Made by a program: the position numbers and the translations under genes
Part shown: positions 1,740 to 25,698 of the stretch, piece after piece
How positions within the stretch are numbered: the first letter of the stretch is position 1
How the letters are laid out: each line of letters opens with the position of its first letter
The notes under the pieces: model-generated
Database searches by the model: none
Told to the model about the DNA's origin: nothing
What the model saw: the letters and a program-made list of their open reading frames with translations, nothing else
Origin: a virus
Lineage: Duplodnaviria; Caudoviricetes
IMG/VR virus record: IMGVR_UViG_3300033182_000145
Location: 1-63,982 of that record
Direction: 5' to 3' (one strand)
Length of the DNA stretch: 63,982 nucleotides

Positions 1740-1741
1740 TC

Positions 1742-5864: not shown

Positions 5865-5874
5865 GGAGTTTAAA

Positions 5875-6339
5875 ATGGCTAAGCAAACAGGAGTAAATCC
5901 TCCGGGTTATATGCCTATAATGCCAGTTGGTACTACTCGAGAGGGAGGATTTCAAGCTGGTAGTTTTGTTATAGATAATATGAACACGGCTCCCTTGATG
6001 CAGTACTACAACAACATTGAGAATATGTGGGCAAACGTAAATACTTTTGGTCAAGATTTATTAGGCACAATCTATAAGTGGAAAGATTATGAATATAAGA
6101 AGTGGAAGGCCAAGCGTAAAGAACGTTTAATTGCTAGTCTTTCTCAAGCAGGAAACATAAAGCGACAAGTAGAGCAAGACCGAATAGATACTGCTTTACA
6201 GGCCGTTGAAGATATTCTACAAACAAGAAGAGAAATAGAATATAAAGCTCCTGTTGCTGAAGATCTTGATTTCGATTTCTTTGATATGATGAGAAAGTTT
6301 GAAGAAGAAGAAGGAGATATTGATGTTAATCCCGCATGA
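5875..6339 (+). CDS. Hypothetical protein, probably internal virion
   Basis: 154 aa; TAAGGAG RBS. Confidence 0.55.
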   Translation: MAKQTGVNPPGYMPIMPVGTTREGGFQAGSFVIDNMNTAPLMQYYNNIENMWANVNTFGQDLLGTIYKWKDYEYKKWKAKRKERLIASLSQAGNIKRQVEQDRIDTALQAVEDILQTRREIEYKAPVAEDLDFDFFDMMRKFEEEEGDIDVNPA

Positions 6340-9300
6340 TGATTCTGTAAATTACTGGTCTAACGTCCTTAGATCAGGCAATCTCCATGCTTACTCAGAT
6401 GAGTTTGGTAATAGTGGTGATTTTCGTTATGTGCCCTTACCTTACGCAAACGAAGGAGAAGACTTTAAACAGCTTCTAGAAATTAGACGACAGAATTCTT
6501 TTGATTACAGTAAACCCTTTAATGAAAAGGGAGAGCTAAATCCAGTAATCCGAGAAGACTTATTATTGTCTTTTCCAGAAACAGCTGTTACTAACTACAT
6601 CAATCAGCGGGGTCATGAATATCCTGAAACTATTTGGCTTCCGAGTTCCAGCCACGGAAGAGAGGCTGAGATTAAAAAACAATTCGGTACTGAGGCTAAT
6701 TATAAAAACTGGCAGAAAGCTAGGTGGCAAAATAGAGGAGAAAAGGGAATACCGGGTACAGGTTTTGTTGAGTCTAATAAGGATGTTGTTTTAATTAATC
6801 AGTGGATTCAAGAACAAAGAAACGGTATTGCTACAAAGGCAAGTGCTAATACTGAGTACGCCGAAGCATTAAACTTTACGGGGTTTATTGCAAGAGCGGA
6901 AGAGTATAGCCGAGGAGAGCTCTTACTTAATAGCTGGCAAACTAGGGATTTTGTGGGTCAGATTTATTTTGACGATGGAGCGTCTACCGCACAAGATATT
7001 CCATTTAAGAATCTCCAGTATGGAGCATTGGGTATGTTTGGACGTAACAGATATATGGAAGAGTTTCAGACAGATGTTCGTCCCAGCCGAAGTGAAATAG
7101 ATGAGAAAGCAGTAAGACAGACGGTTGATGAACTTCTAAAGTATACCGTATCGTTTACAGATCCCAGTGCTATGGAAGCTTTGTTCGGGATAACTGAAGA
7201 GGAAATGATTGCAACTACCATCTTATATGATAAAAATAAAACTTCTGTGTTAGAGATTGAAGAATATCAGGATAGGATCGAAGCATTTAAGGAAACACTG
7301 ATTAACAGAGTTGTGGAAAATAGTCTGCCTACTACTGATTCTATCTTAGATACCTTAAAAACTGAATGGGAAAAACTAGTAGAAACTAACGTAGGAACCC
7401 CTCTTACTTTAAGCGAGGTTAACTCTCCTTGGTGGGACGGAAACCCTTACTATAAGCCCGAGCAAATTATAGGGGAAAATAGTTTCATTGATCAGCCCGA
7501 AGGATATATGGGATCCTTAAACGTTCGTATGCAACGGGAGGTAGAAGATAGAGTAGCCCGTGGTATTGGGTATCCTATGGGAGCAGCGAAAGAAATTTGG
7601 GCTGGACTACAGTCTGGATTCTTCACAACGCTTGGAGGAGCTACTCAGTTACTGACTAAAACAGGAAGTGCTATAGCAGCCGCTATGGCTAAGGCGGGAC
7701 AGTTTGATCCTTCTCAAGAAGAACTTAAGCAGTTAGATACGTTTGTTGAAGAGATTGTAAAGCTTCGGCAAAGGTCTGAAACCCCATTAGACATTATTAA
7801 TAACAGCATTACTGAAGAAGAGTTGTTGGTCTTACAAGCAGAGGCTTATCGAAATGCCCTGATTAAGGGGGAAAAGGATCGAGCCTATGGGCGGTTTGCT
7901 TCCGTGATGAACGCGGTGGGTGGATTAGGGCTGCCTACTGATCGAGAAAGCTATTTGAACGATGAAACTAAAGAAGGTATTATTGCTCAGTTAGATGAGT
8001 TTCTTATGGAACGCACGCAGAAAGTAGCAGGCCTAAGTCAGATATATAGAGATGCTACAACTCCCGTCAATATATATGAGAAGCTTATGATCGATGCTAT
8101 GAACGAATACTCGAATACGAACTTCACCTCGATGAAACAGGTGAATGGTCTTATTAATGATGTATTAAAGAATCCAGATAAATATAACTACGGGGCTCAG
8201 ATGAATATTCTAGGAACTTATAACCTAGCTAATAGAACCTACTCAGAGCTTCTTGTAGAACAGGATAGAAATACAGCTGAAGCTGCTAGACATATGCAAG
8301 CCATAAAAAATAGACAGACTGGAAATGTAGATGAGACTGGCAATACTATTTTTAGATATTTTGATCCCTCTCAAACACAGTCAGTAGGCTTAGTAGAAGG
8401 TGATCCAGATGTAATTAAAAACTTGCAGGAATATGGAAACATCCATAATCAGGAGTTCCAGACTGCGTATAGAGAAGTTTATATTGGAGCTACAGGAGCA
8501 GAGCCAGAATCCATTCCCTCCCTTCAACAGTTTATAGATCCCTTAAATAACCGGGATGTCGATTGGGGTGAGATTGATCCATTTAGTGGTGTTGCTCTTG
8601 CTCAGATGTTAATGCAAACGTCGGCTGGAAAAACAAATGAAACTATTCCTCAGTTACGATCTCTTTCAACGTTTATAGATAGAGGCTTACAAGATCTTCA
8701 AGATCCTGAGGTATTAGCAAACCCCCAAAAATTAGCTATGGCTATTAGGGCGGCAAACTACAGTAATACTTTAGTAGGAAGTATTAGAGGAAATAGAAAT
8801 GCTAATATGATTAAATCCATGAGGAAAATGTTTGGATGGGAAGATGATAGGAAATGGGGTATGTTAAAGATGTTTAATGCCCTTTCTAGAACTAAATTTG
8901 GCCCAAGCTTTTTATCTCAATTAAGTTTAGCAGAATTAGAAAGTCAAAATCCAGAAGAGCGTTTACAAGCTATGGATAGTATACGTACAAATCTAACTGA
9001 CATTAATAAAACATTTGTAAATATTCTCGGTAGTGTGCTATCTGGAGAAAACGTAGGGTCTCTTCCTACAACAGATAATATGACTAGTTTAATAAACCCT
9101 ATGCGAAGTAGGTTACCTGTTAACGTTGTAGATATCAAATCATTTTCGGACAACTATGGTTTTGAAGGTTGGAAAACAAACTTAAGAACTCTAGGTATTT
9201 TAGATTTACCTGAAGACTACGAAGATAACTATGACGAAATACTACTGCAAAGATTTAATGAAATAAATGACGGTAAAGTTTATTTAACTAAAGAGCAACA

Positions 9301-10285
9301 GGAATGGTACAGGGAAAACGATCCTGAAGCAGGAATAATCCATGCTTTAAGCGAAGCTACTCAAAACCAAGAAATTAGAAGACTCTTTAATACATACGCA
9401 GCAGCATTAAGTTATGAAGGAGTCACTGTAACACCTAGAGAAATGATAGATATGTTAGATGCATATGCTAGTTACTCTGGAATTGAGTATGTTGGACAAG
9501 GTATTACAACTGGAGAAGCCTTTACAAATGCTGAATGGGTAGTTGGGGATTTAAATGTAATTGTAGACAAATATAAACCTATAGGTAGATCTGTTTTATC
9601 CCCAGAGTTTGAAAGTATGTCTACTAAAGATCAAGCTTTAGAGTTATTTTCTAACTACAGAGGAGGACTTACAGATACATTTAACTGGAAAAATGTAGAG
9701 AGTTTACTTTCGTGGATAGATACTGAAGAAACCAGAAATATTTTAGATGTTAATTTTGACATAAATAATTCTTGGTGGAAACGTATCGCTAGTAGTAATC
9801 AAATAACTGAAGAAACATTAGGTAATTCTATTTCTTCAGTAATAACCGAAGTGATTCGAGATTACTCAGGGATAAAAATGACTGAATATTTAGAGGGAGT
9901 TGAGGATGTACATAGGGTTGTAGAATATTCTCCCACCTTATTAGATATTCATTTAGAAATTATAAGAAGACTCGTTGACAAAAACGGACCGTTTAAGTAT
10001 AATATTGAAGGGTTATCTGGAGTAACCCTAGCAAGTGAAGCTTTTGCACAAGAAGAAGGGTTTAATTATTACAAATACCCAGATTCTTCTTTAGAGTATT
10101 CTGTTTTTGAAACTGGAAAGGTTTCAGGAGAATCTCTTAGTTATTCACAAGTGCCTTTAACATTACGAAATACACAAACCTCAATTAATTTACCGTGGAA
10201 ATTAGATTCTTCATTGTGGAATCCAACCAAAGAAATAACTGAGATGAGATCGTATAGTCGAGGATATGGAAACCTTTATGAATAA
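6323..10285 (+). CDS. Large internal virion protein (gp15 position), ~1320 aa
   Basis: Long ORF; start moved to ATG 6323 behind AAGGAG; precedes the giant protein. Assignment is positional. Confidence 0.6.
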   Translation: MLIPHDDSVNYWSNVLRSGNLHAYSDEFGNSGDFRYVPLPYANEGEDFKQLLEIRRQNSFDYSKPFNEKGELNPVIREDLLLSFPETAVTNYINQRGHEYPETIWLPSSSHGREAEIKKQFGTEANYKNWQKARWQNRGEKGIPGTGFVESNKDVVLINQWIQEQRNGIATKASANTEYAEALNFTGFIARAEEYSRGELLLNSWQTRDFVGQIYFDDGASTAQDIPFKNLQYGALGMFGRNRYMEEFQTDVRPSRSEIDEKAVRQTVDELLKYTVSFTDPSAMEALFGITEEEMIATTILYDKNKTSVLEIEEYQDRIEAFKETLINRVVENSLPTTDSILDTLKTEWEKLVETNVGTPLTLSEVNSPWWDGNPYYKPEQIIGENSFIDQPEGYMGSLNVRMQREVEDRVARGIGYPMGAAKEIWAGLQSGFFTTLGGATQLLTKTGSAIAAAMAKAGQFDPSQEELKQLDTFVEEIVKLRQRSETPLDIINNSITEEELLVLQAEAYRNALIKGEKDRAYGRFASVMNAVGGLGLPTDRESYLNDETKEGIIAQLDEFLMERTQKVAGLSQIYRDATTPVNIYEKLMIDAMNEYSNTNFTSMKQVNGLINDVLKNPDKYNYGAQMNILGTYNLANRTYSELLVEQDRNTAEAARHMQAIKNRQTGNVDETGNTIFRYFDPSQTQSVGLVEGDPDVIKNLQEYGNIHNQEFQTAYREVYIGATGAEPESIPSLQQFIDPLNNRDVDWGEIDPFSGVALAQMLMQTSAGKTNETIPQLRSLSTFIDRGLQDLQDPEVLANPQKLAMAIRAANYSNTLVGSIRGNRNANMIKSMRKMFGWEDDRKWGMLKMFNALSRTKFGPSFLSQLSLAELESQNPEERLQAMDSIRTNLTDINKTFVNILGSVLSGENVGSLPTTDNMTSLINPMRSRLPVNVVDIKSFSDNYGFEGWKTNLRTLGILDLPEDYEDNYDEILLQRFNEINDGKVYLTKEQQEWYRENDPEAGIIHALSEATQNQEIRRLFNTYAAALSYEGVTVTPREMIDMLDAYASYSGIEYVGQGITTGEAFTNAEWVVGDLNVIVDKYKPIGRSVLSPEFESMSTKDQALELFSNYRGGLTDTFNWKNVESLLSWIDTEETRNILDVNFDINNSWWKRIASSNQITEETLGNSISSVITEVIRDYSGIKMTEYLEGVEDVHRVVEYSPTLLDIHLEIIRRLVDKNGPFKYNIEGLSGVTLASEAFAQEEGFNYYKYPDSSLEYSVFETGKVSGESLSYSQVPLTLRNTQTSINLPWKLDSSLWNPTKEITEMRSYSRGYGNLYE

Positions 10286-10371
10286 ATCCTGAAATAGAAA
10301 GAAGACAGAATCCAGATACTTAAGCAATGTTTGAGCAAATGCTCGAGCAATAAACTAGGAGGAAAACCTTA

Positions 10372-13300
10372 ATGACTGATTTTAGTTGGGCTTATAATCC
10401 CCTTGATATCAAACCGACCTCTACGATGGTCAGACAAATTCAGAAAGAAGAACTGAAAAAATACCAAGAAGGTTTTCAGTCTGTTCCTAGAACTAGTGAG
10501 GGGGCACAATACGAAAGCACATTAGCTAATCCAACTATCTTTATCGACAAAGCTGGTAAAAGAGTTAGAGGCCACATGACAGCACTCCAAGCTGGGGCTG
10601 AAGCCATGGCTGCTAGATACTCTCGAGGATACACCAGCAAAAATAGAGCCTTCTCCCAGTATGTTGCACGTATGGCATTGGGTGGTAGAGATCTATCCAC
10701 TTGGGATCCTGACGGTAAGGCTCCTCTTCTTTCTTTAAACGATAATCAAGAGCAGTTATTAACCAAGTTCTTGGGTGAGAATACATGGAATAATAATATA
10801 TTTGCTTATAATGAGCTGGGGGATTTACCCGTTCTTAATAATTTTTACCAAACTCCAGAAGAATTGTTTGAAGATCCCGCTCCAGCTAATTGGAATACAG
10901 CGGCAGCTTTAGAGCAATTAGAGTTAGCCGATCCAAATTTATACTACTCACTTGAATATTCTCTTGGGGGGAAAGAACGTTTGGAGGCTGTTGTTGAGAA
11001 GGCTAGAAATCCTGTTGAGTTTTTCTTTAAGCTAAACGATGCTCAGCAGATGCAGGCAATAGCCCAGTCTTTTGAGGAGTTTAGCAAAGAAGCAAACTGG
11101 ATCGAAGAGAGTGGAGTATTTATTTTTAATTTTATTAGAGACGGTATCCTTAATGATCCTGATATGGCAGCTAGTATGGCAATTACTGGTTTACTATCGC
11201 TTACTACAGCAGGTATTGGCGGCGCTGCTTATGCTGCTATTAAGCTTGCTAAGAATGCTAATAAGATTGCTACTGTACTAAAGAATGTTAAGAGATTTAA
11301 TAAAGTTCAAATGGGAACAAGATGGGTTTCTATGCATCTCCCAGAAAACATCGGACCTTACTTGATGCAGAGTAAGTTTTTTAAAGACAGCTACCAGCAT
11401 ATGAGTAAGTTGCAGCAGGTAGGAGTCAATGCTTTAGCAAACGCTACTGAAGGACTTATTACTGGCTCGTTAGCAGAGACAGCTAATCAATTTAAGTTAG
11501 TGGATGCCGGGATACAGGAAAAGGTAAGTGGGGCTGCTATTGCTCGTGAGGGGCTTTTAGAAATGGCTATCTCTCCTCTTATTAACCCCGCAATTGGTAG
11601 GCTTTATACCGGAATCAGTACCCTATCTATTGGTGCAGGTCGATTAACTTACAATGCTGGGGCTTACTTTGGAAAGCAGTTAAACCTTGTTACGCCTGAT
11701 TTAGGTAAGACTTTAAGCAAGATTGGAAAAGAGGCTTCTCAAAACTTTAGCCCTGAGGGATTACAAAGAACAATCCACGTATACGAAGCTAAGGATAGAC
11801 TTAAAACCAACCTGTCTGCCCTCTTAGGGGAGGAACAAAATATTGGTGATTGGATTGATGGCGATGAAATGATGCCCAATCTTTTAAATATTATTCGAAG
11901 AGTAACTAATTTAGATGATACGGTTTTACTGGATTCCCTTAATACTTCCTTAGAGGCTTTTATTGCTGACCCAGAAAACAAAAATATTACTATGGATCCT
12001 ATGGGACTGGCTGTTGGATTGATTGGATCCTTAGCATTAGATCCTGAAATAAACGCAAAGATGCAGCAGCAGGGTTCTGATGTCTTTACTGGAGCATTGC
12101 AGCAGTTTTTAGCAACAAGAGAAATTGTATCAGAGTCTAAGAACAGTATGGAGTATACTGGAGAAGAGATGACTCCTACTCAGTTTGCTGAGTGGATTGT
12201 CGAGAACAACGCTGAATATTTAACGATGCCTCCAGAAACAAAGGCAGAAGCTAAGAAAGAAGCGGGTGATAAGTGGGATGATATGAGCCATTCGGAAAGA
12301 ACTAAGAAAACCGAAGATGTTCATAATAGAATGGTTGAAGATCAGAATGCAGAGTTAAACGATATTGCACAGGAACAAGTTGGAACTACACAGAAATTAG
12401 AAACCGAAACCAAAACAGGAGCATCCGTAACCGGAACACCACTTAATCCACCTTCTCCCGGTGTTAATCCCGTTGTCCATGCACAGAAGGAGGCTAATAG
12501 GGTTGCAGAGCAGTTAGAAAAAGAACTTAATAAGATTACTAAAGAACTAAAAGAGGCAAGAAAAAGAAATATGCCTCTTTCAGATATTAAAGCTAGGCGA
12601 CGAAAAGTAGTTAATCAGCTTAAGAAAATTAGAACGGCTGCTAAAAGATTAACAAGGCTTCAAGATCAATTTTTAAATGCCATGGGAGCTACTAAAAAGG
12701 ATATTGAGTTAGGTAAGAAAATAATGGAACTAACCAATAACTTTGAGGCTGTTAAAGAACAGGTTCTCCCTCAGTTAGAAATTGAAGGAAAGCTTTTAGA
12801 ACTAACTAACAGATCCCTCCTTCTTACTAGACTCTTCTTAGATGAAGAAGCTGAAGGTACATTGTTTGAAAGAACAATTCGATCTTACGCTGATAGAAGT
12901 AAAATTACCGAAGAAGATATTACACTTTTAGAAGAGATCAAGCTATTTATTGAGGAAGATTTAAAACCATACCATGACCAAGGTGCTAAGCTGTTAACTC
13001 CTGAGGGTAAGTTATATAAGTATATTATACATATCTTAGATAACAAAGGTAAAATAAACTATAATGACTATCACAAAAACTTTATTAAAGGATTAACTGA
13101 GCTTCCTAGAACTTTAAGTAAGGCTATGCAGTCTGTTCACGGTGAAACATTTGCTAGGTATAAGAGTTTAGAAGACGAGATTCTTAACTTAGAAAGAGAA
13201 CAGAGATTAGAAAGAAAGAAGGCTGTTATAGCTGAAGGTAGAAAGCAGGTATTAGAGTTGGCGGGTATTGCTACCATGCCCTCTGTACTTCAGGAAAGAA

Positions 13301-16300
13301 AAGCTGTACGTTTAGAGAACGAGTCAAGGAAAGAGATTTTACTTCGTCTTGTGGATGAGTTTGTGGATGAGAAGAGCACTACAATAACTCAGGTTGATTC
13401 ACAAATAGATTCTAGTCGACTGGTTACTGAAAAAACTAAAGCAGCAGCCAAGAGACAGGGAGCTACTGACGAACAGATAGCAGAAGATATAGCAAAGGCA
13501 GAAGCTGATGCTGATAAGTTTGCAGGTAAGTCTGTTATGGAAGAGGGAGCGGACATGCCGAGCGCGGTCGCAAAAACAGCAGATACGCAAAAAGCTTTGG
13601 GCAAACTAACAGATGAGCAATTAGATAGAGTAGATAAGTTAATAGATAGTCATGATTATGATGCGGATGATCTAGCTATCCATATTCCAGTTGTGTGGGT
13701 GAGCAACGGAAGAATTGAGGTTGCATCGAAATCGGAAGTACTAAACCTTGGATCTAAGGAAGAAGCTAAGGCTGCTGTTTCTGAAGCTAAGGCATCGAGA
13801 GTAGAAGTAAAAAAGAAAACTATAACGAAAATGAATCCTGCTGATCCTGAGTTTGCTGCTGTTATAGATGACAAAAACTTAAAGAAGAAGCTGGGTAAGA
13901 AGCCTTTAAAGATTGAAGAAGTAAAGAAACGTATCTCAGAATTCTATGAAAAGAAAATTGCAACTCTAACAAAGGGTCTCAGGCCTTCTATTAGAACTAA
14001 TAGAGCACCTCGATATTATCCCAAGGTTAGAGATGAAACTCATAAGTACCTTCATAACTTTACGGATGATGAAATTCTCAGTGTAGACTACGATTATATT
14101 GAACGTATTGAATCTAATAGAATGGACTTATCCGAGGTTGTTAGAAGCCCTGAGGAAGAATTAAAAGAGCTTACCCAGTGGAAGGTTAACTTAATTAACT
14201 TATTTAGATACTTCTCTAATACTAATCACAAGGACTTGGAGAACGGAGTTCATGTCTTTAGAATCATTGCGTCGATGCCGAGCTACTTTAGAAAGATTTC
14301 TTTAGACGGTAGTATTCATATATTCTTACAAGAAGCTTTAATGGATCAAGAGAATTTTGGGGTAGACGATGATATTTCCACCCAACGATTTGATTTAAAT
14401 AAGGTTATTGAATTAGTAAGCGAACAAGAGAATAAGGCTTTTAGAGCTACTGATGGAATTAAGAAACGAATGGCTCAGGAGTATGGTGCTAAGATTGAAG
14501 AGCAGCTCCGTAGAGAGGGAGACCCCTCGAACGTTAATGATCTTGAAACTGCTTTAGAGTTTATTACAAAGGTACGACAGGCTTTGGATTTCTATTACCA
14601 GAGCAACGCTAGACCGAATGGACCAGACGGCCCAGTGAGGTATGTACTTGAGGTAGATGAGTTTGGACGAGCTACAGAAACTACCGATAGTACTACGGTT
14701 TATGTAGCAGCAGTTAGAACTGGTATTACAGCTAGAATACATCAGTTAACCAGAGCAAAGTTTAAAAACAAGTTTACCGCGCTCCTTGAAAAAGCAAAGA
14801 AAGAAGGAGCTAAGGGATCTACTGATCAGGAAGTAATAACAGACTATATTGTAAATAATCTCAACTTAATGAACTCCTCGGAATTAGATACCGCAGGGTA
14901 CGTTGAGTTTACTCTTGAAGGTTTTGGAGATGGTACTCTTGCTTGGGGGAATGACCCCGGAACAGTGGGCGGAGCTATTGTTGATACATTCTTGGGAAGA
15001 GCTATCCCTGAGTTATATAACTTACAGGCTGTTGATAGTATTGAAGCAAGTAATATTAACGAAAGAAGTATAGATCAGGGAGAATCTCTTATAGTGACTC
15101 CAGCAGGAATTGGAGATTTAAACCTTGCTGCTCCTGTTGGCTTATGGAAGATAGCTCGTGTTGTTGAGAATGCACGGTGGCGTAGTAGAATTACCGCTAT
15201 TTTAGAGGCAGCCCGAGAAGGTAAATTAACCGCTAAGCAGAAGAAGATATTAGAAAAGTGGAAAGAAGATCAGGTTATTCCAGAGGATATTTCCCCAACA
15301 GACGATCAATTAGGAGCTTTCTTACTTCCCCAAATCTTTGGTCATAACATGCAGGAAAAGGCTATGACCAGAGATCAGCAGATCGAGGCTATTACTTACT
15401 TCTTAAGTGATATCCCTCAGATTAGTGCTTCTATTATTCAGGATTCAATTACTCTGAGCAGAGGAAGCGTTGTTCGGTTTAGGGATACGGCAGAAGCTCC
15501 CCAGCCCTTGAGCTTAGGAAACATGGAGTCTATGCCCAAAATGGGAACAATGAATGCTATACCGATTAGTAGAATTGGAGAGCTGTTAGCATTAGAAAGT
15601 ATGATTCCTAATCTTACAAACTATACTACAAACATGGTTAAGTTTGCGGATAGATATGCTAGAGAGTATAGAGAAAAGTGGGAAGCAGCCAATCCGGGTA
15701 AAGAGTTTGATCAGTCAATTATATTTGATCCTGCGGCATATGATGATATGGGTGCAAGTATTGATAGTATTATCCATACTTTAAGTTTAGCTGCTACAAG
15801 GGCTCCCCAAGTTTCTGATGCATTAGCTAACTTAGAAGCCATGTTTATTATGCCGAACGGTACAGAAACAGATTTTGAACTTCTTAAACTAGACGAGAAG
15901 GGAAACATTGTAGTATCTGACGAAGCAAGGAAAAGAGGATTTACGAGTAGAGCCGAAGAAGATTATTATATTAATACGGGAATTACCCTTGTAAGTAAGA
16001 TGAATGAGATGTTTGGGGAAAACCACCCACTAAGAAAACAAGCAGGCGAGTTTATTGGTGTTCTTAATTGGTTAACCGATAACAACATAACAACTGCTAT
16101 TGAATACCAGAATAAGATAAAAGAGTTAGAAGAAAGTGGAAATCAAAAGGAATTAGCTAAGGCCGATGCCCTTAGAGAATTCTTAAAAATTCCCATTATG
16201 CGTAAGCTATATGGTGGTGGTCTTCCTTCCTTCCGTTCTGAGTTTATTGGAAGAACTGCTAATAGTAAGAAGGTTATTGCTGATTTAAATAAGGCATTTG

Positions 16301-19300
16301 GTATAAAACTTTCTGAAGATAATATAATGGGAATGGGTAAAATCCTATTAAACCGAGCTCAGAACCAAGCTATTGTTCTGTTAAATTCGGCGTTAGGATT
16401 GCAGCCTAAGAAATTAAAGGCAGTTAGAAACTTCTTAAGTTTAAAGCCGGATCAAGATCTTACGGCAAGAGGACAGAATCTTAAGGCTAGCTGGGAAGAA
16501 ATTGTTAGATCTTTGAATACTCCGCACGGACAGCAGACTACGTTGACGGATAGTAATCCTCTAACTACCTTAGATATAGCTATAACTAACCTTACAGCTC
16601 AGCTTAACGATATTGCTGAGATTGAGGGTATTCGTTTTGCGGAGGCAAAAAGAAAGTACGCGCACGCTGAGAAGGGCTTAAACTATTTAAAGAAACTTAA
16701 AAAAGACCATACAGAGTTAGAAGTTGGTAGCGAAGAGTGGGCTACATTCCAAGAAATTGTTCATGGTAAGAAGCAAACATGGAGAACGATCGGTCTCTTT
16801 AAGGCTTTGAATATTCTTAACTCGTCTGCCTACAAAGCAAACATTGAAAGAATAACAGCTGTAGCTGAAGACTTTGGGCTTACTGGCTTTGATGCTAAGG
16901 ACTGGCTGGGATTAGAAAACTTAGTTCTATATCACTTGAATCTTCCTACAGCTTCGTCTAAAAGATCTTATGCACACGGAGCCGATACGAACGGAATCTT
17001 TAACGAAAGAGCTGTCGTTAGTCCTGAGCTTTATGAAAACTTCAGAGCTAAAATGAAACAGCTGGAAGCTAAGCAGGGTGCTCCTATTTCACGTCAACAG
17101 TTCTTAGCTGAGTTTAACGAGTTCTTATCCGCAGAAAATATTGATAGTATGGGAATGTGGGATCTCAAAGATAACGTTATGCGGAGAAAGGAAGATGGAG
17201 AACTAAAGAGCAGAGAAGAAATACAGGAAGAGATTGGAGAATTGCTGGATATCGGGGCTCTTCTTTATTGGGCTCAGAATGATAAACTTCCTCCGGGTAT
17301 GTTTGAGAATCAGTTAGATGATCTGGGAGACGTTGAGGTTTATAAGCATGTCTTAGAGGACATGGCTCGTAAAACTGAAGAAAGAGCTGAAGGTATTATT
17401 ACTGAGCAGCAAGAAGAAGAGATGGCCTATAGAGAGGGATATCATGAATTCTTAAGACTGAAGGCAAAAATTGCTGGCGGCTTAGTCCATCCTCGGGTGG
17501 CTAATGATTTAGATTTGCCTGTTGTTGATTTCTACACTAGAGAAAGAAGCATATCGGAAATGGTCCCCACCTCAGCGGGACAACTTCATATCTCTACGGT
17601 TAATCCCAAGGGTGTCTTATCAATGATGCCTCAGACCAAGAGAATGTCTTTCCATAATATCGGTATTCCTGTTCTTCAAGAGATAGCTATTAGAAGACAG
17701 ATTAATAATATTCTTAGTCCGGTTCAAAGATTAACTAATGATCAAACGTTAACTAAGGAAGAAGGATTAATCTCAGAAGAGTTCTTAGGATATCGTGGAC
17801 CTTGGAAAGAAGAAAGTCTTCCTAAGCCGTTGCCTATTACTATTGATGAGATTGCTGACCTCAGAGCTAGAGATACCGATGGGTCTCACCTTAAGGCAAT
17901 ACGTATTATTACAGATCTTAGAGTGTGGGCAGACGAAAGAGGAATGGATCCCACTAAGATTCAGGGAGAAGCAATCCCCTTCTGGTTTGTCGTAAAGGAA
18001 ATGGAACAAGCAAGACATAATTTATTCCTTCGTAGTGAAGAACAAGCTTTCTCGGAGGAGGGGGGACTAGCCGGAGTAGATTTTGTACGTCAGCAAAACA
18101 GATTAAACTGGTTATCGGATTTACATAATATTACTTATTATTCACGAGATCTTAAAAACAGAGAATTATCTGGATTAACTATTGAAGAACAGTCTCGTAA
18201 ATTAGCGCTAATGACAAAAGCTAGTGAGGAAACTTGGATTAACTTACTACGTAATAGGGTGTCTGAAGACAACCCATACGGTAAGGCTTTGTCTTCCCCC
18301 ACAAAGGTTGCGGCTGCTTTAGAAATGATTCTGCCTAGAGAAGCATTCTTAAGAATTAAGAGAAGTATTGATTCAAATGCAGAAATAGTCTGGAGTGAGT
18401 TAGCTGAGCTTGCCTCTATCTGGCAGCAGACTGACTTTAACTACTACCTTGTCTCTCAGTTCTATAACAACAGTGTCTTCCCTGATGCACTAAAGGAATT
18501 TTCTATTGAAGAGAACGGCAAGACAATTCATCCTTATAGGGATATGCTTGTTCCTGAATTAGACGAGAACGGTGTTGTTAAGAAAGACTCAAAGGGTAAG
18601 GACTTAATGATCGAGGTTTGGAAGGATCCTAATTCTTGGATTAACCATATCAAACCAGAGCATAAGGAAGAGTTAATTCAAATCGCTCAGAGATTAGTTG
18701 ACGATCCTGAAAAGGGAGTTGGGAATGTTGTCTTTGATACACTGATGATTGAAAAGTTAGAAACAGATCCAAGGGGCCGAAGCAAGGCCGCTAGAGATAT
18801 GTACTATGCTTTATTCCCGAAGGAAGATGTTAACGCTGTTAGCGAGTCTACATCATTGAAGTCTCCCTTCCCAGCTCTACAGGCACAGGGGCAGTCTTCT
18901 AGTAAGGTTCGAGGAACGGGAGGAGATTTAGTTCTTACGCCAGCTAGAGCCTTAGAGATGTTAACCTTCTTAGAAAACTTTAATTTCTACCAGAGAGTTC
19001 AAACTCAGGAATTACTGGATGGTAAGGCTATTGGTGCTGTTATGGATAGCTCTCGAGAAGAAGCTATAAACAGAGAAACCTTAAGCCGTAGACTTAGAAA
19101 TGGCTTAGGACATAGCCAAACAGAAATGACTAAGGCTAGCCAGCAAACCAGTGAGGCTATTCTTCGGTTAGCTCGTGGAAGACAGACTAGAACAATTACA
19201 AACGATAAGCAAACATTATATGGTGCTCATCCAAAGGTGGTTGATTTAGATCATTACACAAACTTTGACAGCTCTTACACAGATAACTTTGCTCCTGCGT

Positions 19301-22300
19301 GGGTTGAATCCTTTATTGGAAACTTGTCTAAGATTGAACACTTATGGAAAACCACAGGAATAGATAACTTCGTTCGTCTTGATAGGGGAGAAAGAAATGT
19401 TCTTGCTTACTTAGAAGAACTTAAGAAAACTGTAAGAACAGAACAAAAAGGACAAGCCTTAGCAGAAACTATAGCTTTAAGTATCTTGATAGATAATGTA
19501 GGCAAAGATTTAGTAATAAGCCCTGAAGAAATTCACACCTTCTTTAATAGAGATCTAATGACAGAAGAAGATATTTCAAAAGGTATTGATGTGGCTACTG
19601 GGATGATGCGTCAGATAAACAGGGGGTATAGCTTATATAAAAATAATCCTAACACTGATGTAAGAATGTATCCTGCTTTAGTAAGCTTAGCAAGAGAGGT
19701 GTTTTCTTCGTATGATCTGTCTCAAAAAGACTTAGTTGCAGAGTTTAAAGAACTGTATGTAGAAAAAGTAAACCCAAGTGCTGATGAACAGTTTGGATTT
19801 AGTAGAAAGGACGATACAGTTGAGTTTGAAAATGGAGACTCTGCTTTACATTATGTTCTTACTCACGCATTAGGAGAGGAGTTAGAAACTTTAAACACCC
19901 GTCGAGATATGCCGGATGTTGATTCTTTAACTCCTAAACAGTTCCAGATTATCGGGCAAGATCTTGTCACAGCAGTTCAAACTTCTGAATCATTTGAAAA
20001 AGCTATTAGATCTATAGATCCTACTGGCAATATTAATTCAGATTTGCTTAGACTGGGACAGCAGTTAAGAGATATGGAGAATCAGGGACTGGTTCATAAA
20101 AATAATCTTAAACTGCTCAGAGCTATGATTCTTAGATTACATGATATTTCTCCAGATTGGTTCTCTGATTTTAACTTTGAATATATAGATGCAGCAGAAC
20201 GAACGGCTGCACTTAGAGATGAAGAAGGAAATGTTGTTGTTCGATTAGGACGAGACCTTACTAGACCCTACTCTTCACCCGATGTTGCTCTTACCTTTGC
20301 CCATGAGTTATTCCATGTTGGTAAGTTTAAGTTTGTTGAAAGTAATCCGGGTGTTTGGAATCAGTGGAAGGCTTTATGGGATTCTACTGCGGGCAGATCG
20401 TTAATGCGTAAGCATGTTACAGCTTGGAATAACGGTAAGTTTAATGCCGCAGAATATGACGCATACATGAAAAACCCAGACGAGTATCTTGCTGCCTTAG
20501 GTTCTTTCTTTATGATGAATGATATCTTGCCTGTGGTAGATACCTTAACTGTAGAAGAACGAAACATCAATAATAAAACGATGTCTGTTTTAGGTAAGGT
20601 TTTAGACTTTGTTCGCAACATGTTTAATAGAGTATCTAATGTGTGGGCTAATTTCTATTCAGCAAATCCTGAATTATCTAACCACGTTGAGACCCTGATA
20701 CAACGTACTATGGGTTGGGACCACAAGGCAGGAAAGGGATTAAAGGCTGATAAAATTGCTGGAGCTCCCACAGAAATGTTTATGAGAATGAAGTATCCTC
20801 AAGCTGAAGAAACCTTCAATTCAACCGATTTTGAAAAGAAGGTAAGACAGTTCGTAGCTTTAAGAGAAAAACACGATAATAATACTATTGGTCGAGAAGA
20901 GTTAGTGGAGTATGATGGCCTTCGTGAATACTTCTCTACGTCTAACGAAGCTCAGGTACATACTAACTTAGGTCAAACTAGGCAGGAGTTTTATGAAACT
21001 AAGCTCTTTATTGAGGAACATTATATGACTCAAACAGGGAGTATTGATATCACGAAGATATTGAACGATACTCCTCAGAGTGTCCGAGGTATTATTCCTC
21101 GAGAACAGGCTAGAGATAGTATTATTCTTACCGCGACTCAGATGATGATGGACCAGATTAAAAGTAGATTTGGGCCTACGATTCAAAGAAACGCAGGAGA
21201 GATAGCAGCTACCTTAGGAGCTGGTGTTAGTAAGTTATTCGGCAAAGAATCTAGATTTATGGAGCAGCAGTTAGCAGAGTGGACTACTGGTAAGGCGGGG
21301 ACCAACTTTACCTTTAACGGTCCTCATCAGTTTGTTGCTCACCTTACTCAACTTATCGATGATAATATTGGAACCAGCTTAGGCCAGTATACAAACGTAC
21401 ATGGTCTTTACTCGTTAAACAATATCATGAATCAGTTAGATTTATTCTCTGAAAACATTCTTCCGGCAATTACCGGGATTCAAAAGATAACTAGAAACTT
21501 TGTGCAAAGAGTTGTTGATACTCCTAATCTTGATCCTAAGGCTAGAGATATGGAGACCAAGATAAACTCTGAGATGGCAAAGCTTTTTGAAAACCCCAAT
21601 CATGAGATTAATTTCGATAATGATGAAAACCTCTTAAAATTAAACACCGAAAAAATTGGAGAGCTTCAAGATCATATGAAAACAGTGGCCTCCACCATGA
21701 GAAAACTTTTACAGTCGTATGAAGGTGTTCTTAGGGAATTAGGAGAATCTAGAGAAGGAGCACAGATTCGTACTCCTCTTAGACTGTCTACTAATATACG
21801 GGATACTACGGGAAGCGAAAACTTTAGAGTGGAGTTACGTAAGATCTTTAGGGAAGGTTTGGAGAATAATGATTTAAGTATTGATGCATTAACCATGATC
21901 GAGGGTGGTCTTCTTCCTAGAACTGATAGACGAGCTTCATTGGTAGAAGATTTAGATCGATTGGAGAGAGAGTATCCGGGCTACAGGCAATTCATTGCTT
22001 ATGAGCTGGGCTCTACTTTGCAGACAAGAAGCGAAACACAGCTTACTGAGGATCAGCTTACGGAACGAGGTGAGGCTATTCTTAAGGGATTAAAGAGTGA
22101 TACAACAGAAATTTCTAACCACTCCTTAGGTCTTACTAGGAAAGCTGTTATTGAGATAATGAAGAAGATGCAGAGAGGGGATCTAACGTGGACTAAGATT
22201 GCACGAATGGATAACACTGCTAGACTTCGTGATACTTATATGGCTACAATTAGAGAAGGCTCTACAAAGATTGGAACTGAAAGACTACAGTCTCTTAGTG

Positions 22301-24558
22301 CAATCAAGGAAGAGTTACCCAACTATCTTCACTTCAGTAAGGGGCGAACTGGCTCTGTCCAGAACTACGCCTATAACTATAAAACAGCAATTGATGTTCA
22401 TATTGATAATCTCTTAAACAGAGCATCTGTGGGGATGTATTATCCAAACGATAACTGGATTATTCCTAGTATTGATGTATTGGTAGACAATCCTGCTATC
22501 CGTACTCAGCTGTCTCTGGAGCCTATGCAGATTGTTGAAGACATGAAGCGAGGTACTATCGGAAATCTGTTTGAACGAGCAATGCTTAATAAGTACTATA
22601 ACGTTGAAGGAACCATTGGAGATGTTATTACTCTCTTTGAGGAAAGTATGGAAAGAGCAGTTGATATTAGGAATGATGATGGTTCTGTTTTAAGCGATAC
22701 CGATACTCAGGATATGTTTAATTCTGCTAAGGTTCTTAGAGGAAAGTATCTTACCACGAAGGGAATACATCTTGCTTCTAACAGTCCGTCTAGGGTTGAA
22801 AGATTATTAGGGGATCTTGGTCCGGGCATAACCCGAACAATCTTCGGAGGAAACCTTGCCCTCGCTTCCTTTACGGTGGAAACTATGGCTAGCACTTTCC
22901 AAGAATTGTTTGGCCGAGGTAATATCATGGGAGCAGTTAGAACTATTCTTGGCCCGGTAACTGGCTTAACGCCGGGTGGTGTTACCCTTAACTCTGAACA
23001 GAAAGCTAAGCTTCAGCGAGACTTAATGCATACTATTGAAGCATTGACTAAGGGATATCTCCCTGATTATGAGAAGCCCTCTACGGCTGTCCAAGAAAAG
23101 GCTCTGACTCGATTCTTTAACTGGACAGGTAAGCACTCCATGCGTCCCGCAGAACATATGTTACGGGTTACGGCTATCTCCAGAGCGGTCTCCTTTAGAA
23201 CATTTGTTACTGAAGGGTTTAGGCAACGGAACAGCAGTGGTAAGATTAAGTTTGTTGCTCTTGCTGAGTCTATTCGTGATAAACCTTTAGATCCGAACAA
23301 CGATGCGGATATTAAAAGCAGATTGAGAGAAGCTGGGTTTAATAACTGGATGGACAAAGATCTGACTATTATCACTTATCTGCTTTCAAATGGTTTATTA
23401 GATATGCAGGTTCAGACTCAATCAGGAGTGGTTGGTCAGAATACTGATGGATTATTCCACGCTTTCCTTGCGGAAATGGAGAAAACCTTGGAAAGTGGGG
23501 ATCCCTATTATAGCACCGGAGATATGTTTAACGAAATCGTAAGAACGATGGACGGTGGTAGTGCAGCTTTCCAGACCAGACAGGCTGTTATTGTGGGATT
23601 GAAAAAGGCAGAGAAGGCCTTTATTGAAGAAATTATTCTTAAACCAAACGCCTTTGATGTGTTTACCCCCGGCGTAACTAAGGGAGGGGAAGTCCAGAGT
23701 GTCGGTGCTTTAGATCCTCTCTTTGAAATCTATCGTCGATACCCCATGATCTTTGTGGGACAGCATATGATGAGGAAGTCTAATAGGTTGCATATAGGAC
23801 GCTACGCCTTTGGTCTGATGAATCTACTTATGCTGGATGTCTTATACATGATGCTACTGAGGTTGGCTATGGGATCTCGTTTAGAAGATATCGAGAAAGA
23901 GTTTGAGGAAAAGCCCACAGAGTTTATGATGAAATACTTAACTAGATTACCTATCCTTGGGCGATACATGGGCTTAGTTGGAGAGGCTGTCTCTACGATG
24001 TACAGTGGATATGGTAGAGAGCCCGGAGGATTTATTCCTGTGGGTGCTCTGTACGCGGGCTATAAAGGCATTCACAGGGCTGTCAAGAGCCAGATGAATG
24101 ATGCTCCCTCGAAGTGGTCTGATACCGTAAACTCGCTCAGAGTGGTTCCTATCGTCGGAGACAGGCTCCTATCGCTTGCCTTCTATACGGCTATGGGAGA
24201 CAACATTACTAGAAGAAATATTAACAGCAGTGGAACTACTAGGGATTTGGCTTCTAGAGTCAGAGGAAGCTACGGCGTTCCTCTGGAGGCTGTAAACTAT
24301 ATGTGGCCTGCTTTGACTTCAGAAATGGTACGGGAGTTTATGGTAGGCCAAAACATTAGCTGGCCTGCCTACGAGATGGCCAATGAGCCCTCTCCTTATC
24401 AGATGGCTCCGATGCCGACTACGCCTCCCCCGGCTGTTGAAGAACCCACTGCTCCAACACCTACACCGACCCTACCTACTACGCCTGTCGTAGATAGATT
24501 GGGAGAACAGAAAGGAACGTCAAGCGAGCTTGTCGAAAGACTAACAGGGGGAAGCTGA
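10372..24558 (+). CDS. Giant internal virion protein (4728 aa, gp16 position) with an RNAP motif-B-like segment and a zincin HExxH motif
   Basis: AGGAGG RBS; LREFLKIPIMRKLYGGG (Rx3Kx7YG) at aa ~1935-1948; FAHELFH at aa ~3311 with downstream DEYLA; hydrophobic segments near both termini. Confidence 0.7.
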   Translation: MTDFSWAYNPLDIKPTSTMVRQIQKEELKKYQEGFQSVPRTSEGAQYESTLANPTIFIDKAGKRVRGHMTALQAGAEAMAARYSRGYTSKNRAFSQYVARMALGGRDLSTWDPDGKAPLLSLNDNQEQLLTKFLGENTWNNNIFAYNELGDLPVLNNFYQTPEELFEDPAPANWNTAAALEQLELADPNLYYSLEYSLGGKERLEAVVEKARNPVEFFFKLNDAQQMQAIAQSFEEFSKEANWIEESGVFIFNFIRDGILNDPDMAASMAITGLLSLTTAGIGGAAYAAIKLAKNANKIATVLKNVKRFNKVQMGTRWVSMHLPENIGPYLMQSKFFKDSYQHMSKLQQVGVNALANATEGLITGSLAETANQFKLVDAGIQEKVSGAAIAREGLLEMAISPLINPAIGRLYTGISTLSIGAGRLTYNAGAYFGKQLNLVTPDLGKTLSKIGKEASQNFSPEGLQRTIHVYEAKDRLKTNLSALLGEEQNIGDWIDGDEMMPNLLNIIRRVTNLDDTVLLDSLNTSLEAFIADPENKNITMDPMGLAVGLIGSLALDPEINAKMQQQGSDVFTGALQQFLATREIVSESKNSMEYTGEEMTPTQFAEWIVENNAEYLTMPPETKAEAKKEAGDKWDDMSHSERTKKTEDVHNRMVEDQNAELNDIAQEQVGTTQKLETETKTGASVTGTPLNPPSPGVNPVVHAQKEANRVAEQLEKELNKITKELKEARKRNMPLSDIKARRRKVVNQLKKIRTAAKRLTRLQDQFLNAMGATKKDIELGKKIMELTNNFEAVKEQVLPQLEIEGKLLELTNRSLLLTRLFLDEEAEGTLFERTIRSYADRSKITEEDITLLEEIKLFIEEDLKPYHDQGAKLLTPEGKLYKYIIHILDNKGKINYNDYHKNFIKGLTELPRTLSKAMQSVHGETFARYKSLEDEILNLEREQRLERKKAVIAEGRKQVLELAGIATMPSVLQERKAVRLENESRKEILLRLVDEFVDEKSTTITQVDSQIDSSRLVTEKTKAAAKRQGATDEQIAEDIAKAEADADKFAGKSVMEEGADMPSAVAKTADTQKALGKLTDEQLDRVDKLIDSHDYDADDLAIHIPVVWVSNGRIEVASKSEVLNLGSKEEAKAAVSEAKASRVEVKKKTITKMNPADPEFAAVIDDKNLKKKLGKKPLKIEEVKKRISEFYEKKIATLTKGLRPSIRTNRAPRYYPKVRDETHKYLHNFTDDEILSVDYDYIERIESNRMDLSEVVRSPEEELKELTQWKVNLINLFRYFSNTNHKDLENGVHVFRIIASMPSYFRKISLDGSIHIFLQEALMDQENFGVDDDISTQRFDLNKVIELVSEQENKAFRATDGIKKRMAQEYGAKIEEQLRREGDPSNVNDLETALEFITKVRQALDFYYQSNARPNGPDGPVRYVLEVDEFGRATETTDSTTVYVAAVRTGITARIHQLTRAKFKNKFTALLEKAKKEGAKGSTDQEVITDYIVNNLNLMNSSELDTAGYVEFTLEGFGDGTLAWGNDPGTVGGAIVDTFLGRAIPELYNLQAVDSIEASNINERSIDQGESLIVTPAGIGDLNLAAPVGLWKIARVVENARWRSRITAILEAAREGKLTAKQKKILEKWKEDQVIPEDISPTDDQLGAFLLPQIFGHNMQEKAMTRDQQIEAITYFLSDIPQISASIIQDSITLSRGSVVRFRDTAEAPQPLSLGNMESMPKMGTMNAIPISRIGELLALESMIPNLTNYTTNMVKFADRYAREYREKWEAANPGKEFDQSIIFDPAAYDDMGASIDSIIHTLSLAATRAPQVSDALANLEAMFIMPNGTETDFELLKLDEKGNIVVSDEARKRGFTSRAEEDYYINTGITLVSKMNEMFGENHPLRKQAGEFIGVLNWLTDNNITTAIEYQNKIKELEESGNQKELAKADALREFLKIPIMRKLYGGGLPSFRSEFIGRTANSKKVIADLNKAFGIKLSEDNIMGMGKILLNRAQNQAIVLLNSALGLQPKKLKAVRNFLSLKPDQDLTARGQNLKASWEEIVRSLNTPHGQQTTLTDSNPLTTLDIAITNLTAQLNDIAEIEGIRFAEAKRKYAHAEKGLNYLKKLKKDHTELEVGSEEWATFQEIVHGKKQTWRTIGLFKALNILNSSAYKANIERITAVAEDFGLTGFDAKDWLGLENLVLYHLNLPTASSKRSYAHGADTNGIFNERAVVSPELYENFRAKMKQLEAKQGAPISRQQFLAEFNEFLSAENIDSMGMWDLKDNVMRRKEDGELKSREEIQEEIGELLDIGALLYWAQNDKLPPGMFENQLDDLGDVEVYKHVLEDMARKTEERAEGIITEQQEEEMAYREGYHEFLRLKAKIAGGLVHPRVANDLDLPVVDFYTRERSISEMVPTSAGQLHISTVNPKGVLSMMPQTKRMSFHNIGIPVLQEIAIRRQINNILSPVQRLTNDQTLTKEEGLISEEFLGYRGPWKEESLPKPLPITIDEIADLRARDTDGSHLKAIRIITDLRVWADERGMDPTKIQGEAIPFWFVVKEMEQARHNLFLRSEEQAFSEEGGLAGVDFVRQQNRLNWLSDLHNITYYSRDLKNRELSGLTIEEQSRKLALMTKASEETWINLLRNRVSEDNPYGKALSSPTKVAAALEMILPREAFLRIKRSIDSNAEIVWSELAELASIWQQTDFNYYLVSQFYNNSVFPDALKEFSIEENGKTIHPYRDMLVPELDENGVVKKDSKGKDLMIEVWKDPNSWINHIKPEHKEELIQIAQRLVDDPEKGVGNVVFDTLMIEKLETDPRGRSKAARDMYYALFPKEDVNAVSESTSLKSPFPALQAQGQSSSKVRGTGGDLVLTPARALEMLTFLENFNFYQRVQTQELLDGKAIGAVMDSSREEAINRETLSRRLRNGLGHSQTEMTKASQQTSEAILRLARGRQTRTITNDKQTLYGAHPKVVDLDHYTNFDSSYTDNFAPAWVESFIGNLSKIEHLWKTTGIDNFVRLDRGERNVLAYLEELKKTVRTEQKGQALAETIALSILIDNVGKDLVISPEEIHTFFNRDLMTEEDISKGIDVATGMMRQINRGYSLYKNNPNTDVRMYPALVSLAREVFSSYDLSQKDLVAEFKELYVEKVNPSADEQFGFSRKDDTVEFENGDSALHYVLTHALGEELETLNTRRDMPDVDSLTPKQFQIIGQDLVTAVQTSESFEKAIRSIDPTGNINSDLLRLGQQLRDMENQGLVHKNNLKLLRAMILRLHDISPDWFSDFNFEYIDAAERTAALRDEEGNVVVRLGRDLTRPYSSPDVALTFAHELFHVGKFKFVESNPGVWNQWKALWDSTAGRSLMRKHVTAWNNGKFNAAEYDAYMKNPDEYLAALGSFFMMNDILPVVDTLTVEERNINNKTMSVLGKVLDFVRNMFNRVSNVWANFYSANPELSNHVETLIQRTMGWDHKAGKGLKADKIAGAPTEMFMRMKYPQAEETFNSTDFEKKVRQFVALREKHDNNTIGREELVEYDGLREYFSTSNEAQVHTNLGQTRQEFYETKLFIEEHYMTQTGSIDITKILNDTPQSVRGIIPREQARDSIILTATQMMMDQIKSRFGPTIQRNAGEIAATLGAGVSKLFGKESRFMEQQLAEWTTGKAGTNFTFNGPHQFVAHLTQLIDDNIGTSLGQYTNVHGLYSLNNIMNQLDLFSENILPAITGIQKITRNFVQRVVDTPNLDPKARDMETKINSEMAKLFENPNHEINFDNDENLLKLNTEKIGELQDHMKTVASTMRKLLQSYEGVLRELGESREGAQIRTPLRLSTNIRDTTGSENFRVELRKIFREGLENNDLSIDALTMIEGGLLPRTDRRASLVEDLDRLEREYPGYRQFIAYELGSTLQTRSETQLTEDQLTERGEAILKGLKSDTTEISNHSLGLTRKAVIEIMKKMQRGDLTWTKIARMDNTARLRDTYMATIREGSTKIGTERLQSLSAIKEELPNYLHFSKGRTGSVQNYAYNYKTAIDVHIDNLLNRASVGMYYPNDNWIIPSIDVLVDNPAIRTQLSLEPMQIVEDMKRGTIGNLFERAMLNKYYNVEGTIGDVITLFEESMERAVDIRNDDGSVLSDTDTQDMFNSAKVLRGKYLTTKGIHLASNSPSRVERLLGDLGPGITRTIFGGNLALASFTVETMASTFQELFGRGNIMGAVRTILGPVTGLTPGGVTLNSEQKAKLQRDLMHTIEALTKGYLPDYEKPSTAVQEKALTRFFNWTGKHSMRPAEHMLRVTAISRAVSFRTFVTEGFRQRNSSGKIKFVALAESIRDKPLDPNNDADIKSRLREAGFNNWMDKDLTIITYLLSNGLLDMQVQTQSGVVGQNTDGLFHAFLAEMEKTLESGDPYYSTGDMFNEIVRTMDGGSAAFQTRQAVIVGLKKAEKAFIEEIILKPNAFDVFTPGVTKGGEVQSVGALDPLFEIYRRYPMIFVGQHMMRKSNRLHIGRYAFGLMNLLMLDVLYMMLLRLAMGSRLEDIEKEFEEKPTEFMMKYLTRLPILGRYMGLVGEAVSTMYSGYGREPGGFIPVGALYAGYKGIHRAVKSQMNDAPSKWSDTVNSLRVVPIVGDRLLSLAFYTAMGDNITRRNINSSGTTRDLASRVRGSYGVPLEAVNYMWPALTSEMVREFMVGQNISWPAYEMANEPSPYQMAPMPTTPPPAVEEPTAPTPTPTLPTTPVVDRLGEQKGTSSELVERLTGGS

Positions 24559-25471: not shown

Positions 25472-25473
25472 CA

Positions 25474-25667: not shown

Positions 25668-25698
25668 CGTATGTTCAAACCTTTTGGAGTTAAATCCT

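Follow-up and report, generated by a model that had tools for sequence, protein, structure and literature searches.

A giant protein of marine T7-like podophages contains a conserved segment resembling the motif A-to-B region of single-subunit RNA polymerases

The single-subunit RNA polymerases (RNAPs) are defined, in the available portion of PMC4496689, by motifs A, B and C together with (T/D)x2GR, and the same portion describes phage N4 as combining a virion RNAP (vRNAP) with a second RNAP of the T7 type. The N4 vRNAP, gp50, is a giant single polypeptide of 3,500 amino acids (aa), of which mini-vRNAP spans aa 998-2103; an HExxH motif lies downstream of its polymerase part, as given in the available excerpt of PMC5512222. 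Here we describe a giant protein encoded by an open reading frame (ORF) of 4,728 aa in the IMG/VR virus record IMGVR_UViG_3300033182_000145, the whole of which, 63,982 bases, is the window referred to throughout. A sequence-only reading of this DNA had proposed a virion-RNAP-like segment inside the protein. We propose, with a probability of about 0.4, that the segment is a distant relative, rearranged or degenerate, of the part of the single-subunit RNAPs that runs from motif A to motif B, that is, of the fingers that bind nucleoside triphosphate (NTP) and template together with the motif A aspartate. It would lie inside an N4-vRNAP-like, probably injected polyvalent protein and would bind nucleotide or nucleic acid without being a canonical polymerase. 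The ORF and its polymerase-like elements are as follows.

10372..24558, plus strand: giant ORF P0001, 4,728 aa, from the ORF list and its translation.
14869..17811, plus strand: conserved, mostly helical module, aa 1500-2480, holding all of the polymerase-like elements (alignments A2-A7).
15430..15444, plus strand: SIIQD (family consensus F-I-H-D) with D1691, motif-C-like but upstream of motif A.
15739..15759, plus strand: motif-A-like YDDMGAS (YDDMGASIDSIIHTLSL from aa 1790) with D1792.
15955..15969, plus strand: D-x-Y element EEDYY, aa 1862-1866, with D1864 and Y1866, at a helix start.
16171..16221, plus strand: motif-B-like LREFLKIPIMRKLYGGG, aa 1934-1950, with R1935, K1939, M1943 and Y1947, in a long helix.
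16810..16812, plus strand: N2147 in F-K-A-L-N-x-x-N-S.
16906..16971, plus strand: LGLENLVLYHLNLPTASSKRSY, a predicted beta strand and then the near-invariant R2198; to the eye it resembles motif C, though it is without an acidic residue.

Translation bore out the sequence-only reading as to the elements themselves: the motif-B-like stretch, the motif-A-like element and EEDYY lie where it had placed them, in the order it had given, within the one ORF. The codon of R1935 was found at nucleotide (nt) 16174 by pattern search. The pattern Rx3Kx7YG has one match in the giant protein, whereas 20,000 shuffles of its residues gave a mean of 0.032, with at least one match in a fraction 0.031 of them; the looser Rx3Kx7Y, with two matches against 0.49 expected, is not rare. 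When the open frames of 100 aa or more in the window (27,197 residues in all) are taken together, the full pattern has three matches; the two outside the giant protein are the motif B sites of two enzymes of the phage, its family-A DNA polymerase (nt 44237) and its T7-type RNAP (nt 36843). Because only 0.032 matches are expected and both of the other matches are genuine motif B sites, the pattern is both rare and specific within this genome. The motif observation is real and not a chance match in a long protein; its elements also rank with the best-conserved positions of a family of more than 50 giant proteins.

The relatives of the giant protein form a family of their own. The search for loci used the whole-protein alignment A1 and returned 12 loci in IMG/VR, nine of them with a full-length giant ORF of 4,731-5,694 aa, and 11 further loci in JGI metagenomes; a word-indexed search gave three homologues of 5,084-5,359 aa. 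The homologues are 3,397-5,694 aa long and approximately 20-30% identical to the window protein. A profile of aa 1500-2480 run against 1.84 billion cluster representatives matched 87 proteins at E<=1e-3, every one of them a giant protein (2,395-5,694 aa) or a piece of one, and none a known polymerase. Searching 50,697 phage records by tblastn with aa 1500-2500 and with the ORF upstream of the giant gene matched nothing, and in the literature we found no account of this giant protein family, nor of a vRNAP-like protein in T7-like phages. The phages that carry the protein form a marine lineage of T7-like podophages whose contigs measure about 54-82 kb.

Conservation was counted in alignment A4 (68 rows), over those rows that have a residue at the position. 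Within the 981-aa segment, 29 positions are at least 85% conserved. In the motif-B-like helix these are R1935 (51/51), K1939 (48/49) and Y1947 (49/50), so that the Arg, Lys and Tyr which the sequence-only reading had taken for motif B are indeed nearly invariant. The motif-A-like D1792 is kept in 43/43, and the D-x-Y element in 43/45 (D1864) and 40/44 (Y1866). Outside these elements, D1691 upstream (47/47) and N2147 (49/49) and R2198 (55/57) downstream are likewise constant or nearly so, and other positions conserved to at least 95% are G1519 (38/39), G1521 (37/39), R1606 (41/43), G1725 (47/47) and P2420 (46/48). Thus six of the 29 positions (D1792, D1864, Y1866, R1935, K1939 and Y1947) are identical to RNAP hallmark residues, five of the six being at least 95% conserved. 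At the motif-A-like element the family consensus, D-R-x-F-[S/N]-G, is nearer to T7 D-G-S-C-S-G and N4 D-G-V-T-N-G than is the window copy DDMGASI, which lacks the Gly; the window protein likewise has Gln at the His of F-I-H-D. These counts suggest an apparent active site in a family of more than 50 unannotated giant proteins of 4-5.7 thousand residues.

The family was compared by hhalign with a profile of the polymerase domain of N4-like vRNAPs (seven, later 27 sequences) and with one of T7-like RNAPs (five, later 29). The hallmark residues, D537, R627, K631, Y639 and D812 in T7 and D559, R666, K670, Y678 and D951 in N4, were checked against the sequences. As a positive control, the N4-like and T7-like profiles scored 52.6-55.9 against each other (P 5e-5 to 2.5e-5). 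The family (31 rows) scored 32.5 against the N4-like profile (P 0.019, 119 columns), with D1792 on D559, D1864 and Y1866 on the 'DLY' element, and R1935, K1939 and Y1947 on R666, K670 and Y678. Against the shallow T7-like profile the score was 25.4 and covered motif B only; against the deeper profile it was 36.0 (P 0.0058), and with 43 family rows against 29 T7-like rows it was 37.95 (P 0.003, HH probability 10.5%, 135 columns), the signal thus growing with profile depth from 25.4 to 36-38. The T7 register places D1792 on D537, D1864 and Y1866 on D569 and Y571, and R1935, K1939, M1943 and Y1947 on R627, K631, M635 and Y639. Separately built alignments, compared with an independent tool, gave a single match, motif B on motif B (score 28.2, P 0.022).

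Around 80 control comparisons, with reversed profiles, six other segments of the giant protein, the family of the upstream ORF, T7 gp15 and gp16, and other parts of the N4 vRNAP, scored 11-24, with exceptions at 27.4, 29.7 and 30.1. The last of these is the HExxH region of the giant protein against that of N4, which is arguably real. The T7-like score of 36-38 stands above all of the controls. Separate comparisons of the regions on either side, preceding motif A and following motif B, had no power, since even the C-terminal parts of N4 and T7 gave P 0.16. The profile signal appears weak but specific and reproducible, and limited to the region from the motif A aspartate to just past the O-helix-like helix. 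Within these bounds, the sequence-only assignment of motif A, D-x-Y and motif B agrees with the register on both RNAP groups.

A further likeness to N4 lies downstream of the module.

20302..20316, plus strand: HELFH (HExxH, zincin-type), aa 3311-3315, with a conserved E3371 at 20482-20484.

E3371 stands about 56 aa downstream of the second His, and HExxH and this Glu are both kept in 10 of the 11 distinct giant proteins. The region aligns with the HExxH of the N4 vRNAP (H2228) at a hhalign P of 0.011, which points to a zincin-like metallopeptidase region within the giant protein. The order of a module, only putatively a polymerase, followed by HExxH is present. In layout the whole protein parallels the N4 vRNAP, being very large and having a polymerase-like module and, after it, a metallopeptidase-like HExxH region. 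Both are giant single polypeptides of podophages; both have D-x3-[S/N]-G, D-L/x-Y and R-x3-K-x-P-x5-Y-x-x-G in order with similar spacing, and in both phages a separate T7-type RNAP is encoded. The distance from motif B to HExxH differs, being approximately 1,360 aa in the giant protein and 550 aa in N4. Unlike the N4 vRNAP, the giant protein lacks the Pfam N4 domains, TxxGR, a collinear motif C Asp and a fold match to 2po4, and it comes from a phage whose genome is not N4-like, having instead a T7-like structural module and early promoters of the sigma-70 type. The T7-type RNAPs (PF00940) are the family's best profile match (score 36-38, P 0.003-0.006), with identical residues at T7 D537, D569, Y571, R627, K631, M635 and Y639. 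Here too the differences are substantial: the giant protein has no collinear N-terminal domain, thumb, DxxGR, specificity loop or motif C (H811-D812) and no PF00940 match, the Gly corresponding to G640 is unconserved, and the module lies within a protein of 4.7-5.7 thousand aa.

The polyvalent proteins of phages and conjugative elements, as characterized in the available excerpt of Iyer et al. 2017 (PMC5512222), are a third point of comparison, the likeness being very large size, a multidomain make-up, a zincin-like HExxH, a DEDD exonuclease module in some relatives and presumed delivery with the DNA. No large-polyvalent-protein Pfam domain matches the giant protein, and its membership would be on architecture only. 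The exonuclease is an insert of the DEDD 3'-5' type (D-I-E-T ... N-G-x-x-F-D), seen in four of 11 homologues (P0002, P0003, P0004/L009 and L007) about 400 aa before HExxH; PF13482 is precomputed for P0003, and the window protein is without the insert.

Several lines of evidence weigh against kinship with the polymerases, the first being the predicted fold. AlphaFold2 models from 45-row alignments were made for the window segment (predicted local distance difference test, pLDDT, 72.3; predicted template-modelling score, pTM, 0.63) and for the homologous segment of a second protein, L006 (pLDDT 76.2, pTM 0.72). Both are mostly helical. Motif B falls in a long helix that ends at the Tyr (segment residues 426-447, pLDDT about 93 in the window model) and the D-x-Y element begins a helix, and this secondary structure fits the polymerase reading. 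D1792, which aligns on T7 D537, was modelled after a long helix and without the hydrophobic strand that precedes it in polymerase palms, in a region that is poorly modelled (pLDDT <50) in the window protein. No Foldseek match reached E<=1e-3, either for the window model against PDB and BFVD (best E 0.09 and 0.02) or for the L006 model against PDB (best E 0.66). At noise level, the L006 list included Taq polymerase (E 2.0), T7 core proteins (9jyy_I, E 2.1) and N4 mini-vRNAP (2po4, E 2.7, TMq 0.12). As far as models of moderate confidence allow, the right-hand fold of palm, fingers and thumb was thus not recovered, and the polymerase fold that the sequence-only reading implied did not appear in either model.

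Library searches were likewise negative. Pfam gave nothing at E<=1 for the whole protein and nine family members, including PF00940, and none of the N4 vRNAP families PF21769, PF21894, PF21624 and PF21867, which are listed for N4 relatives, matched at E<=1. A six-frame search of the genome with PF00940 found only the known RNAP (36384-37532), no PHROG family matched the giant protein, and neither phmmer nor two profiles found anything relevant among PDB sequences; the named clusters of the ESM Atlas gave no usable match. The motif B pattern itself holds for Arg, Lys and Tyr, but the following Gly, G1948, is kept in only five of 11 distinct full-length homologues. Within the profile comparisons, HH-suite probabilities for the polymerase matches are about 2-10%, a shallow profile of close N4 relatives brought the match down to P 0.065-0.16, and two versions of the family segment scored 27.4 and 29.7 against the N4 N-terminal domain.

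The remaining hallmarks are missing. Downstream of motif B no acidic position is at least 85% conserved except E2391, and no conserved (T/D)xxGR element occurs upstream of motif A. We considered and rejected several candidates. GMxDLxDNP (aa 2261-2269) was offered as motif C by a low-stringency N4 realignment, and neither of its acidic positions is kept in about 50 sequences. LGLENLVLYH, which by eye resembles T7 GIESFALIHD, scored 9.6 (P 0.2) as a collinear motif C, and none of 11 homologues has an acidic residue at the equivalent of T7 D812. As DxxGR, RWRSR (1602-1606; RxR 1604-1606) scored 7.9 (P 0.38); aa 1297-1425 gave P 0.051 against the DxxGR region of the RNAPs, but the motif was not paired. 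The caution of the sequence-only reading, that no convincing motif C or DxxGR could be found and that the domain may be very divergent or dead, proved justified. As neither a hidden Markov model match nor motif C, DxxGR or the fold was found when sought, the giant protein should not be filed under PF00940 or the N4 vRNAP families.

The gene content of the phage also bears on the question.

35088..37535, plus strand: the phage's own canonical T7-type RNAP (phrog_414, E 2e-162; PF00940, 264 bits).
33105-33132 and 33404-33431, plus strand: two sigma-70-type promoters by consensus match (11/12 with extended TG, and 12/12).

The RNAP gene follows the two promoters at a distance of about 1.7 kb, and their region has 19 promoter-like sites as compared to 11.6 +/- 3.3 in shuffles. 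Promoters before the RNAP gene are the T7 arrangement and suggest that the host RNAP starts the programme. As a canonical RNAP gene stands behind consensus sigma-70 promoters, a virion RNAP would not be needed for early transcription, and this counts against the virion RNAP identity that the sequence-only reading had put forward, as does the failure of Pfam RNA_pol and the N4 vRNAP families to match. A canonical PF00940 RNAP is encoded elsewhere on the contig in all five relatives checked. The 20 largest direct-repeat families held no phage-promoter-like repeats, N4-type hairpin promoters lying outside that search. What points to packaging and ejection of the giant protein is its gene order and size only, which is a further weakness of the proposal. 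In sum, the virion-RNAP-like reading is partly supported: the conserved motifs and their register were upheld, and a polymerase fold or family-model match was not found.

Nearly as likely as the relationship that we propose is that the module is unrelated to polymerases, being a new helical enzyme or ligand-binding domain in which D...D...DxY...Rx3Kx7Y arose by convergence or chance. The failure to match anything in Pfam, PHROGs, PDB sequences, the ESM Atlas or, by Foldseek, PDB and BFVD is what such a fold would give, and the low HH-suite probabilities, the P of 0.16 with the shallow N4 profile, the unconserved Gly of 'YG' and the lack of a strand before D1792 are all in keeping with it; the control at 29.7 shows that scores around 30 can be meaningless. 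Set against this, the independently built T7-like and N4-like profiles give one register over three anchors, the T7-like score exceeds that of every control, the downstream HExxH parallels the N4 vRNAP, and six of the 29 most conserved positions fall on identical RNAP hallmark residues. Even if the resemblance is convergent, the module would be a conserved fold that is new, and its site would be sharply delimited.

We consider it unlikely that the module is an active, highly divergent polymerase delivered with the DNA, as a virion RNAP or a primase-like enzyme, with the upstream D1691 as second catalytic Asp. All of the residues needed would be present, D1691, D1792, R1935, K1939 and Y1947 being invariant or nearly so, and N4 provides the precedent of a virion RNAP beside a T7-type RNAP, as far as the available portion of PMC4496689 describes it. 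In short-window scans (24 windows by two probes, done post hoc) F-I-H-D ranked first among 24 family windows compared with the T7-like motif C, with a score of 18.6 and P 0.0022 where the null maximum over 84 windows was 14.6; the true N4 motif C scores only 9.4 against T7. The best match to DxxGR was R2198 (S-x-R-x-Y), downstream of motif B, at 19.5 against a null maximum of 16.1 of 84. Because the scans were post hoc and no simple circular permutation of GR-A-B-C would produce the implied order of C-like, A, B and GR-like, these matches may be taken as leads only. Moreover, F-I-H-D was modelled as a helix (pLDDT about 80-90 in the second model) and its His is Gln in the window protein, there is no fold match, and the sigma-70 promoters, with a canonical RNAP in five of five relatives, leave a virion polymerase unrequired. 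It is similarly improbable that the family represents an active single-subunit nucleotide polymerase of new architecture, with A and B in canonical order, D1691 upstream and R2198 downstream, delivered by a widespread marine T7-like lineage; were this so, it would add another independent lineage of virion polymerases to the N4-like vRNAPs and might bridge, in evolution, the transcription strategies of T7-like and N4-like phages.

The last alternative concerns the place of the giant gene among the virion genes.

2261-3946: terminase large subunit.
6299..10285, plus strand: upstream ORF, 1,328 aa, with no Pfam or PHROG family.
23803..23871, plus strand: hydrophobic helix near the C-terminus of the giant protein, aa 4478-4500, from a Kyte-Doolittle scan.

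An ORF of 1,318-1,797 aa precedes the giant gene in all nine full-length IMG/VR relatives. As no internal-virion-protein genes occur between the genes for tail tubular protein B and the tail fibre, gene order leaves the block at 4045-24558, after the terminase gene (261, 345, 154, 1,328 and 4,728 aa), as sole candidate to encode the ejection proteins. Like T7 gp15 and gp16 of the ejectosome, the block lies among late genes and encodes helical proteins that are the largest of the genome, the canonical internal-virion-protein genes being otherwise missing; unlike them, the giant protein has no sequence or profile similarity to either and no lytic transglycosylase domain, is 3.6 times the length of gp16, and is encoded after the terminase gene and not between tail tubular B and the fibre. 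That the segment is part of a structural, helical ejection-channel protein, an expanded analogue of gp15 or gp16 whose conserved residues serve folding or assembly, would suit the gene position and size, the mainly helical models, the hydrophobic helix and the presence of T7 core proteins (9jyy_I) in the Foldseek list, though only at E 2.1, but it is the least probable of the explanations, as isolated near-invariant Asp, Arg, Lys, Tyr and Asn in proteins of 20-30% identity are typical of an active or binding site and as 16 hhalign comparisons of seven giant-protein segments and the upstream ORF family with T7-like gp15 and gp16 from three phages, whose profiles are shallow and of low power, scored 11-24 (P>=0.15). 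A second hydrophobic stretch, at aa ~270-300, reaches threshold in two of the four proteins scanned, the window protein being below it.

Returning to the degenerate or rearranged A-to-B relative that we favour, we propose that the giant protein would be packaged and ejected with the DNA, replacing the large internal virion protein of T7-like phages, and that its D/D/D-R-K-Y site may bind nucleotide or nucleic acid on the cytoplasmic side. It would not act as a canonical two-metal RNA polymerase; early transcription would be carried out by the host RNAP from the sigma-70 promoters and subsequently by the phage's own RNAP. If this is correct, a common uncultured marine T7-like lineage carries an N4-vRNAP-like giant protein in which the polymerase core has been rearranged or disabled, which would bear on the origins of virion polymerases, on the link between T7-like and N4-like strategies and on the role of huge injected proteins in genome entry. 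The family is a tractable target for structure determination.

By gene content the host phage is a T7-like podophage. Its genome also codes for a primase/helicase, a family-A DNA polymerase and ribonucleotide reductase, and the structural genes are those for portal, scaffold, major capsid protein and tail tubular proteins A and B. As a virus record the window is complete (CheckV 100% complete, IMG/VR class direct terminal repeats), with an exact terminal repeat of 141 nt, 1-141 being identical to 63842-63982, which puts the whole genome at about 63.8 kb. The tail-fibre ORF at 60361-63981 continues in frame into 141-1058 (60361..1058) and combines a T7 tail-fibre N domain with a beta-helix.

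Within the giant protein, aa ~560-1250 (12040-14120) form a long, poorly conserved and charge-rich stretch, with 35% D+E+K+R compared with 27% overall, which separates the conserved N-terminal region from the module at aa 1500-2480 and is probably an extended or coiled linker. Relatives of the phage's own RNAP occur on many contigs of 62-71 kb, and some such proteins are also found in Tara data. On contig G001, which carries locus L001, the PF00940 match (39651-40737, minus strand) is split over frames of 620 and 259 aa; this recalls the two-subunit RNAPII of N4, or it may be a frameshift or assembly error. A tRNA cluster at 39829-40066 encodes Met-CAT, Arg-TCT and Leu-TAA. Finally, between the portal and scaffold genes lies an ORF of 320 aa (53289-54251) whose N-terminus matches a tail-fibre PHROG and which has a weak, below-cut-off Pfam match to PF07953, a lectin-like receptor-binding domain family (E 1.4e-4); its product is probably a carbohydrate-binding virion appendage.

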